A stretch of 64,000 nt of DNA from Gammaproteobacteria bacterium (GTDB taxonomy: Bacteria; Pseudomonadota; Gammaproteobacteria; Thiohalospirales; Thiohalospiraceae). Shown piece by piece: positions 11,086 to 63,160 of the stretch. Positions within the stretch are counted from its first letter, which is position 1; the number at the start of each line of letters is the position of its first letter. Location of the stretch: assembly GCA_015490535.1 (NCBI GenBank), contig WFXP01000107.1:3548-67547 (forward strand), written 5' to 3'. A program made the position numbers and the translations under genes. Below the pieces are notes generated by a model. It had not been told where the DNA came from. It searched no databases and saw only the letters and a program-made list of their open reading frames with translations.

Positions 11086-11358
11086 GGGTCTTCACCGAAT
11101 CGTGTGGGTAAAATGGCAAATCACCGCGCAGCGGCTTCGTCCTTGACAGGCGGAATGCACGCCACATACTCGGAAGCCAAGAGGGGATTGGGGCTGTCTG
11201 GGCTGGGAAGTGGCGGATATCCACCACCTGCACCAATTGCACAACCGGTGCGGCTATCCCAAACTCTCCCCAACCCCCTTCTGCCGACCATCTTCCGGCG
11301 TGCATTCCGCCTCTCAAGGATGATTTACCATTTTACCCACACGATTCGGTGAAGACCC
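11086..11358. mobile_element. family A palindromic element, core-only copy (lacks the outer TAGTACTCTTTCAAGG arms)
   Basis: 37-bp perfect terminal inverted repeat (GGGTCTTCACCGAATCGTGTGGGTAAAATGG...). Inner 23-bp inverted repeat CCTTGACAGGCGGAATGCACGCC. Alignable to the other six loci. Confidence 0.8.
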
Positions 11359-12697: not shown

Positions 12698-12866
12698 GTT
12701 GAACCGTAACTATTCAGCTCACCCCTGAAATCCGCCAATGCTGCGTTGAAAAATGGTCATTTACCCTCGTAAACTCCCATTTTTCGCCTTGAACTGACCA
12801 ATTTCAGGGGCAATCTGAACAGTTACCAGCCTGTTTCAATACCATGCTGAATAGTTACGTTGAACC
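12698..12866. repeat. family B palindromic repeat, full copy
   Basis: Terminal inverted repeat GTTGAACCGTAACTATTCAGC / GCTGAATAGTTACGTTGAAC. Inner inverted repeat CCCCTGAAAT...ATTTCAGGGG. Related copies at 33286, 35226 and 57676. Confidence 0.75.
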
Positions 12867-17361: not shown

Positions 17362-17446
17362 GCGGCTGAATCTGATTGGGTCTTCCTCAAATCGTGTGGG
17401 TAAAATGGCAAATCACCGCGTAGCGGATCCGTCCTTGACAGGCGGA
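17362..17446. repeat. family A element, truncated copy (one arm only)
   Basis: GCTGAATCTGATTGGGTCTTCCTCAAATCGTGTGGGTAAAATGGCAAATCACCGCGTAGCGG..CCTTGACAGGCGGA, then similarity stops. Lies directly downstream of the rpoS stop. Confidence 0.7.
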
Positions 17447-31753: not shown

Positions 31754-32084
31754 TAGTACTCCGTCAAAGTAATAAATTTAGGGAGGTCTTCCTCAAATCG
31801 TGTGGGTAAAATGGTAAATCATCCTTGACAGGCGGAATGCACGCCGGAAGATGGTCGGCAGAAGGGGATTGGGGAGGCTTTGGGATAGCCGAACCGGTTG
31901 CAATTGGCGCAGGTGGTGGATATCCGCTACTCCCCAGCCAAACAGCCCCCAATCCCCTTCTGGTTACCGAGTATGTGGCGCGCATTCCGCCTGTCAAGGA
32001 CGGAGCCGCTACGCGGTGATTTACCATTTTACCCACACGATTTGAGGAAGACCTCCCTAAATTTATTACTTTGAAAGAGTACTA
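31754..32084. mobile_element. family A nested palindromic MITE-like element, full copy
   Basis: Outer inverted ends TAGTACTCCGTCAAAGTAATAAATTTAGGGAGGTCTTCC / reverse complement. Inner 37-bp and 23-bp inverted repeats. Inverted relative to the copy at 11086. Confidence 0.8.
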
Positions 32085-32113: not shown

Positions 32114-33289
32114 ATGCCCGTAGTAGATATCAAGGAGATGCTCCAGCACGCCTATCAGAACGGATATGCCGTGGGAGCGTTCGATCTGGTCAGCCTGGAG
32201 TTCCTTGAGGGGATCATTGAGGCGGCGGAACGGTGCCGTTCGCCGGTAATAGTGTCACTGGCGGAGTCCCATTTCGAGCACTACGACTTCGAACTGCTCA
32301 CCACCGCTGCCGAGGCCGCCGCACAGCGGAGCTCCGTTCCGGTGGCCATCTTTCTCGACCACGGCGCCGGGCTGGACTCCGCGGTGCGGGCCATCAACGG
32401 GGGTTGCAACGGAGTAATGGTGGATGCCTCGCACCACCCCCTGCCCGACAACATCGCCCTGACCCGCCAGGTGGTGGAGATGGCCCACTCCTGCGGTGTT
32501 CCCGTCGAGGGGGAACTCGGATATGTCCCGGGCGTGGAGGGGGAGGACGCCGAGCGCCATCCCGGCGAGATATCCTACACCACCGTGGCAGAGGCCTGCA
32601 CATATCTGCAGCAGACCGAAGTGGATTTTCTGGCGGTATCCATAGGCACCGTCCATGGACGCATGAATGGCTGCCCGGAGCTGGATATCGGACGGCTTGC
32701 GGAGATCAACCGGGCGCTACGGATTCCGCTGGTCATCCATGGCGGCACCGGCCTGAGCGATGAGCAGTTCCGTCAACTGATCGAAAACGGCGTGGCCAAA
32801 ATCAACTACTACACGGCGCTGTCCGATGCGGCGGCCCAACAGATCCGTGCCAACACCGGCGCGGGTCCGGGAGGATACACGCAGCTGACCAGGGGGGTAA
32901 GCGACTCCGTACGCGCCGAGTGTGAACGCTGCATGCGCCTCTGGAGGAGCGCCGGGCAGGCCGACGCCGTACTGCAAAGCTGCACCCCCTGGCGGATGGT
33001 GGAACATCTGATCATCTACAATGTAAGCGGGATCGATGAAGAGCAGGCCAGGCGGATGGCGGCGGAGGGGCGCCGCATCCTGGGCCAGATCCCCGGAGTC
33101 AGGCATGTGCTTACCGGAGAAGCGGTCAAACAGGATGCCAAGTATCGCTTCTGCTGGCTGATCCGCTTTGTGCACGAGAAGGTGATCGACAGCTACCGGG
33201 ACCATCCCGATCATGTACGGTTTGCCGATGAGCTGTTCCGGCCCGTAGCAGGCGACCGGATAAGCATAGACTATGAACTGGTGAGGTAA
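32114..33289 (+). CDS. class II ketose/fructose-bisphosphate aldolase fused to a C-terminal Dabb (stress-responsive alpha/beta barrel) domain
   Basis: Aldolase motifs FLDHG, SIGTVHG, LVIHGGTG up to about aa 285, then VEHLIIYNV...YRFCWLIRFVHEKVIDSYRDHPDHVRF typical of Dabb domains. Single uninterrupted ORF. Confidence 0.8.
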   Translation: MPVVDIKEMLQHAYQNGYAVGAFDLVSLEFLEGIIEAAERCRSPVIVSLAESHFEHYDFELLTTAAEAAAQRSSVPVAIFLDHGAGLDSAVRAINGGCNGVMVDASHHPLPDNIALTRQVVEMAHSCGVPVEGELGYVPGVEGEDAERHPGEISYTTVAEACTYLQQTEVDFLAVSIGTVHGRMNGCPELDIGRLAEINRALRIPLVIHGGTGLSDEQFRQLIENGVAKINYYTALSDAAAQQIRANTGAGPGGYTQLTRGVSDSVRAECERCMRLWRSAGQADAVLQSCTPWRMVEHLIIYNVSGIDEEQARRMAAEGRRILGQIPGVRHVLTGEAVKQDAKYRFCWLIRFVHEKVIDSYRDHPDHVRFADELFRPVAGDRISIDYELVR

Positions 33290-33403
33290 CCGTTCAGCTT
33301 ACCCCTGAAATCCGCCATTTCAAACTCACGTTTCACCTTGAACCGACAGATTTCAGGGGTGATCTGAACAGTTGCCGGCCTGCTTCAGGCTGTGCCGAAC
33401 AGC
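33286..33403. repeat. family B repeat, shorter copy
   Basis: GTAACCGTTCAGCTTACCCCTGAAATCCGCC...ATTTCAGGGGTGATCTGAACAGTTGCC aligns to 12698..12866. Its first bases contain the TAA stop of the aldolase-Dabb gene. Confidence 0.7.
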
Positions 33404-35272: not shown

Positions 35273-36219
35273 AGTTGCGACCCCGCTTTATCGCTTGGAG
35301 TTTTTCACGGCTGTTATGCTGGAGAGAGTCTTTCCCACAACCGCTGTGCCGGCGCCCGGGGGGTTGAATCGCGTGACAAAAGAAAGTCCGGGAACAGCTT
35401 CCGCCATTCCCGGACAAACAGACGAAGCGCATCGCCCGCACCTCGTATCATCCCCCCCCAGGGATTCAAAAATTGTCCGCTTTCCGGCTGTATTACCTGC
35501 GCATAGTGTTAGCAATTGCCATGCCAAAACGGCAACTCCCTGTTTTTCAACAATCATCCCGCGCCATTGCACAGCTGAACTGTAGTTCATGAAAAAAAAA
35601 CTGACACCCGAACATGCCCAATTCAACAACCCGGAGCCGGGGCTCCGATAGGGAAGGCGGCGCAGGCCTGACTCCTCTACCGACTTTGTTCCAGTATTTC
35701 AGTATCTTACTGGTTAACCGCCAGCCCGGAGTCCAGATGTTACCTGACGGCTACATGCGTCAACCGCACGCCCGGGATGTGTCAATTTTCCTGACGAGCA
35801 ACCGGAGAGAAATTGACTGCCCGGACGCCTACAGCGCCGGGCCAGCCTGCTACTCTTGCAGCCCGTGACTTCCTGGCTTAGGATGAACAACCCGGCAGCC
35901 GGGTGGGAAACCGCGGCTCGGGGAAGCCATGACGGAGTACTAGGGACTGGCGCCAGCGGCCGGCGTCCGCACCGGATTGGTAACTGTGGGCCGCTGCATC
36001 TTGGTAAGATTAACCCGGCGACTATTACTAATCTAAATCAAATCTCAAAACTGTATTGACCAGCAATCATGGATGACTTTCCATCCATGTATCGTTTCTT
36101 GCCATTCGTGTTGCAGGAACCGGTATTGAAACAATCATGAGACTTTTAGTATGTTGCCGGATCAACAACAATCCCTGTTTTTGGGGAGCACAAACTGGCA
36201 CCAGCCTTACGGGGGAGCT

Positions 36220-48465: not shown

Positions 48466-48768
48466 TGGTACTCCGTCAAGGTTATAACTTAGGATGGTCT
48501 TCCTCAAATCGTATGGGTGAAATGGTAAATCATCCTTGACAGGCAGAATGCACGCCACATACTCGGTAGCCAGAAGGGGATTGAGGCTGTCTGGCCGGGG
48601 AGTGGCGGATATCCACCACCCGCGCCAATTGCAACTGGTCCGGCTGTCCCAAACTCTCCCCAATCCCCTTCTGCCGACCATCTTCCGGCGTGCATTCCGC
48701 CTGTCAAGGATGATTTACCATTTCACCCATACGATTTAAGGAAGACCCATTACCTTGAAAGAGCACTA
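48466..48768. mobile_element. family A nested palindromic MITE-like element, full copy (inside the EPS gene string)
   Basis: GGTACTCCGTCAAGGTTATAACTTAGGATGGTCTTCC...GGAAGACCCATTACCTTGAAAGAGCACTA with inner 23-bp inverted repeat. Same orientation as 11086. Confidence 0.8.
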
Positions 48769-51347: not shown

Positions 51348-51700
51348 TAATGCTCTTTCAAAGTAATAAGTTAGGATCCAGAGGGGCGCTGAATCCGGAT
51401 TGGGTCTCCCTCAAATCTTATGGGTGAAATGGTAAATCATCCTTGACAGGCAGAATGCACGCCGGAAGATGGTCGGCAGAAGGGGATTGGGGAGAGTTTG
51501 GGATAGCCGGAGCAGTCGCAATTGGCGCAGCTGGTGGATATCCGCCACTCCCCGGCCTGCCGGCCCCAATCCCCTTCTGGTTAACGATTATGTGGCGTGC
51601 ATTCCGCCTGTCAAGGAGGGAGCCGCTACGCGGTGATTTACCATTTCACCCATACGATTTGAGGAAGACCATCCTAAGTTATAACCTTGAAAGAGTACTA
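51348..51700. mobile_element. family A nested palindromic MITE-like element, full copy
   Basis: TAATGCTCTTTCAAAGTAATAAG...CCTTGAAAGAGTACTA. The left linker carries an extra GCTGAATCCGGATTGGG module. Confidence 0.8.
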
Positions 51701-57333: not shown

Positions 57334-57672
57334 ATCCTCCTTTCAAGGTAAAAAATCAGGAACTCTTCCTCAAAGCGTGTGGGTGAAATGGTAAATCATC
57401 CTTGACAGGCAGAATGCACGCTGGAAGATGGTCGGCAGAAGGGGATTGGGGAGAGTTTGGGATAGCCGAACCAGTTGCAATGGGCGCAGGTGGTGGATAT
57501 CCGCCACTCTCCAGCCCGGACAGCCCCAATCCCCTTCTGGTTACCGATTATGTGGCGTGCATTCTGCCTGTCAAGGATGATTTACCATTTCACCCACACA
57601 CTTAGAGGAAGACCCCGTCAGGATTCAGCATCCCTCCAACCGAATCCTGATTTACCACCTTGAAAGAGTCCT
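57334..57672. mobile_element. family A nested palindromic MITE-like element, full copy with degenerate outer ends
   Basis: CCTCCTTTCAAGGTAAAAAATCAGGAACTCTTCC...CCTTGAAAGAGTCCT. The right linker carries the GCTGAATCCTGACGGGG module. Confidence 0.75.
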
Positions 57673-59320: not shown

Positions 59321-59643
59321 TAGTATCAAGGTGATAAACCAGGAAGCTCTTCATCAAATCGTGTGGGTAAAATGGTAAATCATCCTTGACAGGCAGAATG
59401 CACGCCGGAAGATGGTCGGCAGAAGGGGATTGGGGAGACTTTGGGATAGCCGCACCAGTAGCAATTGGCACGGGTGGTGGATATCCGCCACTCCCCATCC
59501 CGGACAGCCCCAATCCCCTTCTGGTTACCGATTATGTGGCGTGCATTCTGCCTGTCAAGGACGGAGCCGCTGCGCGGTGATTTACCATTTTACCCACACG
59601 ATTTGATGAAGAGCTTCCTGATTTATCACCTTGAAAGAGTACT
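59321..59643. mobile_element. family A nested palindromic MITE-like element, full copy
   Basis: TAGTATCAAGGTGATAAACCAGGAAGCTCTTCATCAAATCG...CGATTTGATGAAGAGCTTCCTGATTTATCACCTTGAAAGAGTACT. Lies 25 bp from tRNA-Ser. Confidence 0.8.
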
Positions 59644-59667: not shown

Positions 59668-59757
59668 TGGCGGAGGGTCAGGGATTCGAACCCTGGATGG
59701 GCGTGAACCCATGCCGGTTTTCAAGACCGGTGCTTTCAACCGCTCAGCCAACCCTCC
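59668..59757 (-). tRNA. tRNA-Ser (anticodon UGA)
   Basis: Manual fold of the reverse complement: acceptor GGAGGGT/ACCCTCC, anticodon stem CCGGT/ACCGG with loop CTTGAAA, long variable arm ATGGG/CCCAT, T-arm CAGGG-TTCGAAT-CCCTG, encoded CCA. Confidence 0.9.
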
Positions 59758-60740: not shown

Positions 60741-63122
60741 TTGCTATACTTCGCGCCTGTTCCGGTGAATCGCCGCCGGGAAACGGAACCAGGTCAGAAG
60801 AAGGTGGCAACCCTTTGTACACTGAACCCACGCGCGCTTCCCCTGCTGCTGGTGGCACTGCTGCTCATTCCGGAGGCCGCCAGGGCCGCGCGACTCACCA
60901 TGTTTGTGGTTGACAAGACTAACGACCGGCCCGTGGAGGATGCCACGGTGGTTATCCAGGGTGGCGCATGGCACGGCACCACCGACGAACGGGGAAGAGT
61001 CCACTTCGCCAACCTGACCTTTCCGGTGCAGGTCAGGATTCTGGCCCTCGGATACGCCCCGGTACTGTTCCCGCTGCATCCCAAGAGGGAGCAGGTAAAG
61101 ATCCTGCTGACCCCGCTGGCGGTGGAGGGTGAGGCGCTGGAGGTGGTAGCCGACCGGATCCCCCAGAGAAGCTCCAAGATCACCCTGTCACACCGGGAGG
61201 TATCCGCCTCTCCCGGGGCCCAGGGAGATGCTCTCAGGGTAGTCCAGGCCCTCCCCGGGGTGGTCACCGCCTATGGCGGCAGCGGGATGTTCTATATCCG
61301 CGGCAGCAGCCTGGAGGATAACGGCTTCTGGATCAACTCCCTTCCTGTGGGATATCTCTACCACTGGGGCGGGCTGCGCTCCGCCCTCAATCCGGCCCTG
61401 ATAGAGGATTTCAATCTGTTTCTGGGAGGATTTCAGGTGGAGTATCCGGATCGTCTGGGCGGCATGCTGGATATACGCCTGCGAACGCCGCGCAACGATC
61501 GGCTACACCAGCAGTACAACATCGGCACCTTTGAATCCTCCTTCCTCATCGAGGGGCCGGTCGGCGCCGCCGGGGGCAGCGACAGCTTTTACATCGCGGC
61601 GCGACGCAGCTACATCGACCTGCTTCTGTCACCGGACAGCTTCAACTCCGCCCTGGGCAACAGGGACGCCAACGATGACCAGGTGACAGCGGTGCCGCGC
61701 TTTTACGACGCCCAGGCTCTCTGGCATCGCGATCTGGGGGAGGGAACGGTGGAGCTGCAGTATTTCGCCGCGGGCGACAATCTGCAAATGAGAAACAGCA
61801 CCACCCGAAGATCCGATCCCGACCTCGTTGGCGAGCTGCGTCAGGACACCTCCTACCAGACCGCGGGAGTGACCTGGAGACAGCGGTGGGGCGAGGCCCT
61901 GACCAGCCATACGGCGCTCTCCTGGAGCGAGCAGCGTGACGATATATCCCTGGGGACCAACCCGGACACCGGTCGGCCCTATTTCGCCGACAGCCGCGTA
62001 TACACCACGCGCCTGCAGCCGGAGCTCACATGGCAGACCGGTTCCCGCGAGACCATCAGTGGCGGCATGGAGCTGATCTATACGGAGGCACCCATAGATC
62101 TGTATATCGCCGTCCCGCCAGGCGAGGAAGAGCCCTACTACGATTTCACCAGCGCCCGCAAACACCGGCAGAGATCCACCCTGTACGCCACCGGGAAGGC
62201 GCTGTTTGTCAAGCACTCCCGCAGCTGGGGCAGCCGCCTGAGCACCACCCTGGGGCTGCGTTACAGTAGCATAAGCGGATCTTCCGGGATCGACATGGAG
62301 GGGCTGGCCCCGCGTCTCACCGCCGAGTACCATCTGGACAGGGGTACCCTGCTCACCGCCGCGTGGGGAAAGTATCTCCAGATGCCGGGTGGTGAAAAGC
62401 TGATCGATGGCTTCAGCACCCCGGGGTTGGAATTCACCAACGCGGAGCATCGCGTGGTGGGGATTCAGCACCAGCTCTCGCCACTCTGGACACTGCACCT
62501 GGAAGCATACCACAAACCGATGGAGCGACTGGTGGTACGGATCCCGGGAGCCGCTCCCGGACAGAACTATGCCAACGCCGCCAGCGGCGAATCGCGGGGG
62601 GTGGATCTGCTGCTCAAGCGCCAGCAGGGGGATCGTCGCATGGGGTGGCTTAGCTACTCCTGGGGACGCTCCATACGCCGCAACCATCTCACTGGAGAGG
62701 AGTACCCCTCCTCCGGCGATCAGAGCCATACCCTGACCCTGGTCTGGAAACAGCCCATGCCCGGCCCGGCCCGGGCCTGGGACTGGGGCTTCAGGCTGCA
62801 GGCCGCCACCGGGAAACCCTTCACACCGGTGATCGGTCGCGTCCTGGAGCCCCTGCCGGACGGCCGGCAGCGCTGGAGACCCATCCTCGGGGAGACCAAC
62901 AGCGCCCGCCTGCCACACTATTTCAGCCTGGATCTGCGTATAGATCGCAGTATAGCGATGGGCGGCTGGGAGCTGGGTCTATACATCGAACTGCAAAACG
63001 TCACCCGGAACGAGAACGTCATCCGCTACGACTACGGAAACAGCTACCAAAACCATGACAATCCGAGGAAAATCACCGGTCTGCCGTTCCTGCCGGCATT
63101 CGGGATCACGGCAACCTTCTAG
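60741..63122 (+). CDS. TonB-dependent receptor with N-terminal carboxypeptidase-regulatory-like domain
   Basis: Signal peptide (LPLLLVALLLIPEAARA), CarboxypepD_reg-like segment, plug (ALRVVQALPGVV), beta-barrel ending in terminal Phe (GITATF). Start uncertain (TTG 60741, GTG 60765 or 60804). Confidence 0.85.
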   Translation: MLYFAPVPVNRRRETEPGQKKVATLCTLNPRALPLLLVALLLIPEAARAARLTMFVVDKTNDRPVEDATVVIQGGAWHGTTDERGRVHFANLTFPVQVRILALGYAPVLFPLHPKREQVKILLTPLAVEGEALEVVADRIPQRSSKITLSHREVSASPGAQGDALRVVQALPGVVTAYGGSGMFYIRGSSLEDNGFWINSLPVGYLYHWGGLRSALNPALIEDFNLFLGGFQVEYPDRLGGMLDIRLRTPRNDRLHQQYNIGTFESSFLIEGPVGAAGGSDSFYIAARRSYIDLLLSPDSFNSALGNRDANDDQVTAVPRFYDAQALWHRDLGEGTVELQYFAAGDNLQMRNSTTRRSDPDLVGELRQDTSYQTAGVTWRQRWGEALTSHTALSWSEQRDDISLGTNPDTGRPYFADSRVYTTRLQPELTWQTGSRETISGGMELIYTEAPIDLYIAVPPGEEEPYYDFTSARKHRQRSTLYATGKALFVKHSRSWGSRLSTTLGLRYSSISGSSGIDMEGLAPRLTAEYHLDRGTLLTAAWGKYLQMPGGEKLIDGFSTPGLEFTNAEHRVVGIQHQLSPLWTLHLEAYHKPMERLVVRIPGAAPGQNYANAASGESRGVDLLLKRQQGDRRMGWLSYSWGRSIRRNHLTGEEYPSSGDQSHTLTLVWKQPMPGPARAWDWGFRLQAATGKPFTPVIGRVLEPLPDGRQRWRPILGETNSARLPHYFSLDLRIDRSIAMGGWELGLYIELQNVTRNENVIRYDYGNSYQNHDNPRKITGLPFLPAFGITATF

Positions 63123-63160
63123 TACTCCGTCAGCAGATTCTGATTGGTAAAACGGAAAAC
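63120..63160. repeat. family A outer-end fragment
   Basis: TAGTACTCCGTCAGCAGATTCTGATTGGT matches the TAGTACTCCGTCA end plus the GAATCTGATTGGG linker module. Its first three bases are the receptor stop codon. Confidence 0.5.

Follow-up and report, generated by a model that had tools for sequence, protein, structure and literature searches.

The IS elements of the ISL3 family as described in ISfinder, with the MITEs that carry their ends, and the TA/CTAG-targeting bacterial MITEs of the IS630/Tc1-mariner type, such as RUP, Nezha and Correia-like elements, are among the described systems closest to the repeat analysed here. Quasipalindrome correction by template switching is a further known process of relevance to long inverted arms. 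Nested or mosaic non-autonomous elements have also been reported, namely nested plant MITEs (PMC5172404) and TIME-COMP of Pseudomonas (PMC4133298), and Galileo of Drosophila is a foldback-type element with long inverted arms (PMC4168063).

The window, which is the whole stretch of 64,000 nucleotides analysed (C107:3548-67547 of the draft genome G000; 2.13 Mb, 171 contigs, 63% G+C), contains several copies of a palindromic repeat, here called family A. This family is very probably a pair of non-coding MITEs, in which a core with ISL3-type ends is nested within a second, unrelated MITE, called S. An earlier note, made from the letters of the window, had taken it for a single element with nested repeats, and that description gives way here to two unrelated MITEs, one within the other.

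Like the IS elements and MITEs of the ISL3 family, the core starts with GGCTCTTC, has an identity of 25 nt at its ends, is accompanied by an 8-bp duplication in A+T-rich targets, is non-coding and would depend on a transposase acting in trans. Unlike them, the whole core is one long hairpin whose ~90-bp arms reach far past the ~25-nt IS-derived tips, its interior is without similarity to the IS, its copy number is very high (~180 in 2.1 Mb), and three core-bearing assemblies lack a cognate transposase. The outer part of the repeat, the shell, resembles the IS630/Tc1-mariner-type MITEs in that it ends in C-TA-G, in that abutting copies share a TA, and in being small, palindromic, intergenic and high-copy, whereas S ends match no IS630-family IS found here and the shell is just a ~30-55-nt wrapper round a foreign element. 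As in nested plant MITEs and TIME-COMP, a non-autonomous element holds other DNA between its ends and would be mobilised with it as a unit; here, however, one MITE is nested in another of a different IS superfamily, within a small bacterial genome whose dominant repeat the nested product became. As in Galileo and in quasipalindrome correction, long inverted arms appear to recombine, invert the centre and stay homogenised, but the likeness is one of behaviour only, with no kinship of sequence or transposase. Family A is a previously undescribed family of an ordinary kind of selfish DNA, and not a new kind of system. A literature search for a published description of it gave general MITE surveys only, and most prokaryotic MITEs are undescribed according to large surveys (PMC11602168).

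Copies of the repeat in the genome and in the window

The census of family A was made by blastn against the G000 assembly with the copy at 31754-32084 as query. It gave 229 loci, 158 of them with a length of 250 bp or more, with 78 copies in plus and 80 in minus orientation, and the family spans 55.4 kb in total, or 2.6% of the assembly; 35 loci lie at contig ends. The copies are 87-91% identical to one another and have unrelated flanks, and the family is also present in two independently assembled same-genus MAGs, HyVt-486 (G002) and S012_118 (G001). For these reasons it is not an assembly artefact, and the duplication artefact of the assembly that the earlier note had named as a possible refutation is ruled out. 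Among the 143 complete copies only four overlap a gene by more than 40 bp (crude gene calls), which bears out the description of the repeat as intergenic, as the genome-wide counts do for the occurrence of both orientations. When folded as single-stranded DNA, the copy at 31754-32084 reached -136.3 kcal/mol, against -43.2 +/- 3.4 for shuffles (z = -27). Among the plasmids of PLSDB, no relative of family A was found, and S had a single 57-nt match.

The copy at 31754-32084 is a composite of the symmetric 'short/short' form, consisting of an S-type shell, the core and an S-type shell, and is assigned to the minus strand, which is the direction of its internal promoter-like site. Its context is C-TA...TA-G (ATTC TA|GTACTC ... 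GAGTAC|TA G). The left shell (31754-31783, plus strand) is the terminal 30 nt of an S-type MITE, TAGTACTCCGTCAAAGTAATAAATTTAGGG. It is followed by the core (31784-32054, minus strand), a 271-bp ISL3-type MITE with the ends AGGTCTTCCTCAAATCGTGTGGGTA ... TACCCACACGATTTGAGGAAGACCT, which is built of arms A (37 bp), B (23 bp) and C (16 bp) around an asymmetric centre. The right shell (32055-32084, minus strand) is the left shell copied in inverse, and the copy is therefore palindromised and has no direct 8-bp duplication at its core. A predicted sigma-70-like promoter, TTGACA-16 nt-CATACT with 10/12 matches, points inward at 31970-31997 on the minus strand and is conserved in nearly all copies of the family. 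In addition, an extra mini-hairpin block of 16-17 nt, ACGGAGCCGCTACGCGG, is present at 32003-32019 on one arm only, and its side relative to the centre varies between copies. An empty-site comparison for this copy met intergenic DNA that is not conserved in relatives, and its flanks in G002 lie on separate contigs.

All six full copies and three fragments that had been described in the window were re-found, together with the nested inverted repeats of 37, 23 and 16 bp; the extra block on one arm, given earlier as 17 nt, measures 16-17 nt. The copy at 11086-11358 (plus strand) is a naked core, in which the shell is absent; it is an old insertion whose 8-bp duplication is unrecognisable (2/8), and its left flank recurs beside a core in G002 (L033). 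The other four full copies are composites. The one at 48466-48768 (plus strand, core 48495-48748) has a short left and a truncated right shell, while that at 51348-51700 (minus strand, core 51402-51671) is of the ancestral-type 'long/short' form. In the composite at 57334-57672 (minus strand), the core at 57361-57615 stands between a left shell that is short and degenerate and a long right one, and in that at 59321-59643 (minus strand), the core at 59345-59615 stands between short shells, of which the left is degenerate. A tRNA gene (Rfam, 61.4 bits) is located at 59671-59757 on the minus strand, 28 nt from the right end of the latter composite. Of the fragments, 17362-17446 (plus strand) is a truncated core that retains just arm A, the 17-nt block and arm B, and the inner portion of a long shell stands before it; 63120-63160 (plus strand) is a solo S-type shell end, CTAGTACTCCGTCA..., and 35930-35942 (minus strand) a solo S-type end of 13 nt, GACGGAGTACTAG. 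Linker variants shared between copies had been attributed to recombination or subfamilies, and this attribution holds, with the difference that the shared 'variants' are really the short and long sides of an interrupted shell. No transposase is present in the window, and the view of the repeat as MITE-like and non-autonomous was judged right.

The core and its ISL3-type ends

In an alignment of 149 copies, a core of ~270 bp, GGTCTTCCTCAAATCG...CGATTTGAGGAAGACC, is 90-99% conserved per column, and the outer 30-55 nt are far less uniform. Outward from each core arm, three states were observed, namely no shell, a short shell of ~30 nt and a long shell of ~55-59 nt. Complete cores without a shell and with unique flanks were scored at 52 loci, a number that is an upper bound. 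At these naked cores, the 8 nt on each side form direct repeats with a mean of 5.1/8, compared with 2.18 +/- 0.19 for shuffled partners, and they do so solely when the boundary is placed at GGG/GGC ... CCC/GCC. A duplication of at least 7/8 is found at 15 of the 52 and is perfect in five, such as TTTTCAGT and TCTATTTG; perfect 8-bp duplications are also carried by core copies of G001 and G002, and at many old cores the duplication is unrecognisable. The flanks of the naked cores are 60% A+T, against 37% A+T for the genome. Moreover, one core interrupts a family-B repeat, for which the B consensus provides the empty site (TSD CTCACATT), and the cores of G002 (L018) and G001 (L019, perfect TSD GTCTTGGT) are absent at the orthologous sites on G000 contig C86. 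The empty sites and target duplications that the earlier note had proposed to look for are thereby both on record for the core.

An 8-bp duplication together with GGCTCTTC-type ends led to the suspicion of an ISL3 relationship. Metagenomic relatives were fetched with an ISL3 transposase fragment of the same-genus genome G007 as query, and an ISL3 element of ~1303-1307 bp was found at 80 loci from marine sediment and vent samples, with a transposase that is 94% identical to the G007 fragment. The core ends, GG(G/C)TCTTCCCCAAATCGTGTGGGTA, are the exact terminal 25-mer of this ~1306-bp ISL3-family IS of sediment and vent metagenomes. At several copies of the IS the terminal sequence is GGCTCTTCCCCAAATCGTGTGGGTA, which core ends of G000 match without a difference over 25 nt, and in one of ~1306 bp (L117) this sequence forms both ends; within G000, the exact 25-mer stands at one core end and its GGG- version at five. 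The IS end of G007, GGCTCTTCCCCAGATCGAGTGAGT, matches the core end at 20/24 positions. The flanks of the metagenomic IS are 83% A+T, and an 8-bp duplication of at least 7/8, in some cases perfect, was recognised at 5 of 40 copies, most contigs barely exceeding the length of the IS. ISAeme19, a member of the ISL3 family, has been reported to be 1304 bp long with 8-bp direct repeats (PMC12554700).

The likeness between core and IS ends after about 25-30 nt, so that the interior of the core would be of other origin than the IS. The assemblies of G000, G001 and G002, which are fragmented MAGs, lack the ISL3 transposase (PF01610); it is present in the relatives G005-G009, among them other species of the genus. 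With regard to its ends, 8-bp duplication, A+T-rich targets, mobility and lack of coding capacity, the core has what can be checked of an ISL3-type MITE, the one exception being a resident transposase. It would have been moved in trans by an ISL3 transposase, by cut-and-paste or by copying, inserting in A+T-rich intergenic DNA and duplicating 8 bp. At least three species of the genus carry the naked form.

The outer shell and the origin of the composite

The outer ends of the composites, C-TA|GTACTCTTTCAAGG..., belong to the separate MITE S of ~265 bp, whose ends read C-TA|GTACTCTTTCAAGGTAATAA and which is found in several other gammaproteobacterial families. The short shell of ~30 nt is TA|GTACTCTTTCAAGGTAATAAATCAGGA, and the long shell of ~55-59 nt consists of the short one plus the hairpin TTCAG-TTGGAGGGACG-CTGAATCCTGATT. 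Outside this bacterial family, the exact shell end AGTACTCTTTCAAGGTAATAA occurs at 66 ends in G291 and 15 in G101, as well as in G092, G152 and G329, and in genomes of other families the shell ends bound the ~265-bp S with two inward-facing hairpin modules. Full S is also present in G000, such as at C24:5177-5442, as are core-less S derivatives of ~70-75 bp, such as C128:12668-12743, which reads TA-GTACT..AATCAGGATTCA-TTTGGAGGGAC-CCTGAATCCTGATT..AGTA-ATA. The two hairpin modules of S, each of ~95 nt (GGCAAGGCGC...AATGG...TTGTCAAG...GCAACGCCGC), are mutual inverted copies and are conserved across gammaproteobacterial families in variable surroundings (G000 C24:5177-5442; L080, L086, L087, L090, L091).

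TA at the outer ends, as first claimed from the window, is present at 64% of ends genome-wide and belongs to a conserved C-T-A context; at positions -3 to -1 outside the S end, C stands at 72%, T at 64% and A at 61%, with background composition beyond. With G as the first and C as the last letter of the element, duplicating TA inside CTAG yields a sequence indistinguishable from that of a 4-bp CTAG duplication. Duplication of the TA of CTAG is the habit of IS630 elements. The shell behaves like the TA/CTAG-targeting MITEs and is at most a candidate member of the IS630 group. The CTAG at S ends (349 in G000) is often CCAG (21%) or CTGG (23%) and is far more changed than the adjoining TIR positions; the CCAG/CTGG pattern matches the presumed effect of very-short-patch repair on CTAG in enterobacteria.

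The reading of the first analysis, that the whole repeat is a single MITE of the IS630/Tc1-mariner type to which all nested terminal repeats belong and which duplicates TA, could appeal to the C-TA-G of the outer ends, to the one TA common to abutting copies and to an IS630-family transposase in at least four copies. It is nevertheless extremely improbable for the element as a whole, because ~50 shell-less cores have 8-bp duplications at the GGGTCTTC boundary, the shell exists coreless, also in other families without the core, and the resident IS630 ends are unrelated. For the core, with its ISL3-type ends and 8-bp duplication, this reading is contradicted; for the shell alone, where the C-TA-G context fits, it is possible.

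The resident IS630-family IS (DDE_3) has at least four copies in G000, all cut by contig ends, and its ends, TA|TTAACCCGGCAATA, are unlike those of S. These copies, all outside the window, are C51:1-640, C1:1-150, C146:12020-12169 and C14:1-90, with ends of the form TA|TTAAC(C/T)CGGCAATA, and tiny MITEs with the TATTAACCCGGCAA ends of this IS were also noticed, for example near C84:206 and in the flank of C63:11446. The C51 gene was considered as the autonomous partner of the shell, its end abutting ...CCTTGACGGAGTAC, and was rejected; three other copies and a full copy in G006 end in ...GAGTTAATA, and the C51 IS is therefore merely inserted within an S end, at its TA. A transposase for S was searched for in several ways. 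None was found in G000 where two S ends lie 0.4-4 kb from each other, the DDE_3 loci of S-rich genomes have other ends and no S ends, and clustering of contig ends gave just an IS200-like remnant abutting S ends. At G000 C57:26335-27460, a stretch of 1125 bp has S-like ends of ~11 nt (GTACTCTTTC...GAAAGAGTAC), no long ORF and further S ends on both sides; it may be what is left of an autonomous S element, or its ends may be paired by chance.

The IS200-like remnant is a multicopy unit of ~170 bp in which the final ~30 codons of a TnpA of IS200-like type (...TEEMIKEYLEHHFEPRVDDNFRTEA*) stand before two hairpins, and its end is ...GGTGGTTGTTGAGT. It is found in G000 at C132:1-150, C19:1-150 and C129:7946-8130, in G008 (13 copies) and in G006, and all three G000 units abut an S-type end at TA^CCTTGAAAG. 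Family A could in principle be a REP/BIME-type or IS200/IS605-type palindrome that a Y1 (HUH) transposase mobilises in single-stranded form, in view of its hairpin-rich structure and of this multicopy remnant with an IS200-like TnpA C-terminus in the same genome. The likelihood of that is practically negligible, as Y1 elements have neither target duplications nor TIRs, whereas an 8-bp duplication and IS-type TIRs are present here, and as the remnant has its own end, ...GGTGGTTGTTGAGT, and merely abuts S ends. Another repeat, family B, is interleaved with family A in both ways. Its copies (12698-12866 and 33286-33403 in the window, and throughout G000) have the ends GTAACTATTCAGC.../...CTGAACAGTTAC; A shells contain B at C128:9161 and C110:9247, for instance, and B contains an A core at C10:4577-4840.

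With the two-MITE composition preferred here, the flanks of the core indicate how the parts came together. In long/short composites (n=19), direct repeats of the AATCAGGA type stand on either side of the core, their 8 nt agreeing at 5.7/8 on average, which points to one ISL3-type insertion into the stem of a mini-S. The flanks of the core in short/short composites (n=20) are inverted (6.3/8) and not direct (1.5/8), which suggests that one side was replaced by the inverted copy of the other. There is no long/long form. The junction of core and shell is the same in all composites and their outer flanks vary, with CTAG context, which argues that the composite multiplied via its S ends. Compared pairwise, the cores of naked copies are 87.5% identical and those of shelled copies 91.2%. 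G001 has naked cores only and G002 both naked cores and composites; the S-bearing genomes outside this bacterial family have no core, and the same query did match within the genus. From these distributions we infer an order of events from naked through captured and amplified to symmetric. The naked core would be the older form, which spread within the genus. In the lineage of G000 and G002, it would then have entered the stem of a deleted S of ~75 bp, duplicating AATCAGGA, and the composite so formed, its core between one short and one long shell, would have been amplified as a unit through its S ends at CTAG-type sites. Copying of one arm onto the other would finally have produced the symmetric short/short derivative, of which 31754-32084 is an instance.

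Inversion of the core, its promoter-like site and the meaning of the family

The two arms of the core change in concert. Across 129 copies and 76 arm positions, changes were the same in both arms in 315 cells and one-sided in 340. Of three markers of asymmetry that were scored, the -10 loop and the centre are always concordant, and the 17-nt block lies on the 'wrong' arm in ~24 of ~110 copies. Two of six orthologous insertions in G000 and G002 are inverted in situ between the same flanks; their identity is 71% when they are compared collinearly, and 91% and 94% when one is reverse-complemented. In arm A of the orthologues, three concordant two-arm changes were counted against 16 one-sided ones, where ~0.2-0.5 would be expected under independence (a rough estimate). 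The ~90-bp inverted arms therefore probably recombine mutually, by which the centre would be flipped in situ and the arms kept alike in concerted evolution. Homogenisation of the arms may occur by recombination or gene conversion between them, or by template switching on the hairpin, and the symmetrised shells would likewise be explained by such arm recombination, gene conversion or template switching.

Neither a coding nor a structured-RNA function of family A is supported by evidence from the copies. A conserved reading frame, named in the earlier note as a finding that would turn the repeat into a gene family, is absent, as 0 of 142 indels are a multiple of 3 and no Pfam family matches a 90-aa ORF spanning the element. 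In Rfam, nothing was found at gathering score, with chance miRNA matches only (E = 0.18-0.45). Pairing of an RNA might also have kept the arms alike, and a multicopy structured non-coding RNA gene, or a long dsRNA hairpin, with its own promoter would agree with the predicted energy of the consensus hairpin as RNA (-242.7 kcal/mol), with the conserved TTGACA-16-CATACT in one arm and with the many changes present in both arms. Yet 118 of the arm mismatches would be G·U if one strand were the RNA and 121 if the opposite strand were, with 114 transversions besides, and this want of strand bias indicates that the shared changes are not due to selection at the RNA level. Orthologous copies diverge at or above the rate of their flanks (for example 9.3% vs 6.0% and 4.5% vs 0.3%), from which it follows that individual copies are not under purifying selection. 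Together with the empty Rfam search, the lack of a terminator after the promoter-like site and a spread already accounted for by target duplications, empty sites and IS-type ends, this leaves an RNA gene highly doubtful, and the hairpin role in RNA raised by the earlier note is not borne out.

The promoter-like site deserves separate consideration in the nested MITE. It is predicted in one arm and directed inward, TTGACA-16-CATACT or CATAAT, with 10/12 matches where 0.3 chance sites are expected, and it is kept even in the diverged copies of G001; no terminator was found after it. The core interior, including this site, is more uniform among copies than the termini, and a purely 'junk' reading leaves this uniformity unexplained. 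It is conceivable, though improbable, that the core is a mobile invertible sigma-70 promoter cassette, flipped by its ~90-bp arms at up to ~180 intergenic sites. If this were true, the host would have a recombinase-free, dispersed means of switchable sense/antisense transcription, and the uniform interior might be kept for that or for transposition. That the cassettes would in fact give the host heritable or switchable transcription into their neighbours, arm recombination flipping a functional sigma-70 promoter, seems more improbable still. Such switching would suit the two of six orthologues inverted in situ, the conserved promoter and the tandem gene contexts, in which the site faces the same way as the downstream gene 24 times and the opposite way 44 times (crude calls; p ~0.02, rough estimate). 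The inversions, however, are fixed between-species differences, the copies are without purifying selection, and the orientation bias is weak and could equally be explained by selection against read-through.

As an ISL3-type MITE nested in an S-type MITE, family A accounts for the dominant repeat of an uncultured hydrothermal-vent gammaproteobacterium, amounting to 2.6% of a 2.1-Mb genome, and its 35 copies at contig ends explain some of the fragmentation of the assembly as well. The consensus sequences can be used for masking and annotating these repeats in related MAGs. Through its core, a previously unannotated repeat is linked to one particular lineage of ISL3 elements, common among marine sediment metagenomes. 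Moreover, the family offers a clean bacterial case of an ISL3-type MITE that was, in the order of events favoured here, captured by a MITE of another superfamily and re-amplified via the outer ends. In-situ inversion and arm homogenisation are directly visible in sister genomes, so that family A makes a tidy example of MITE-in-MITE capture with flip-flop arms.
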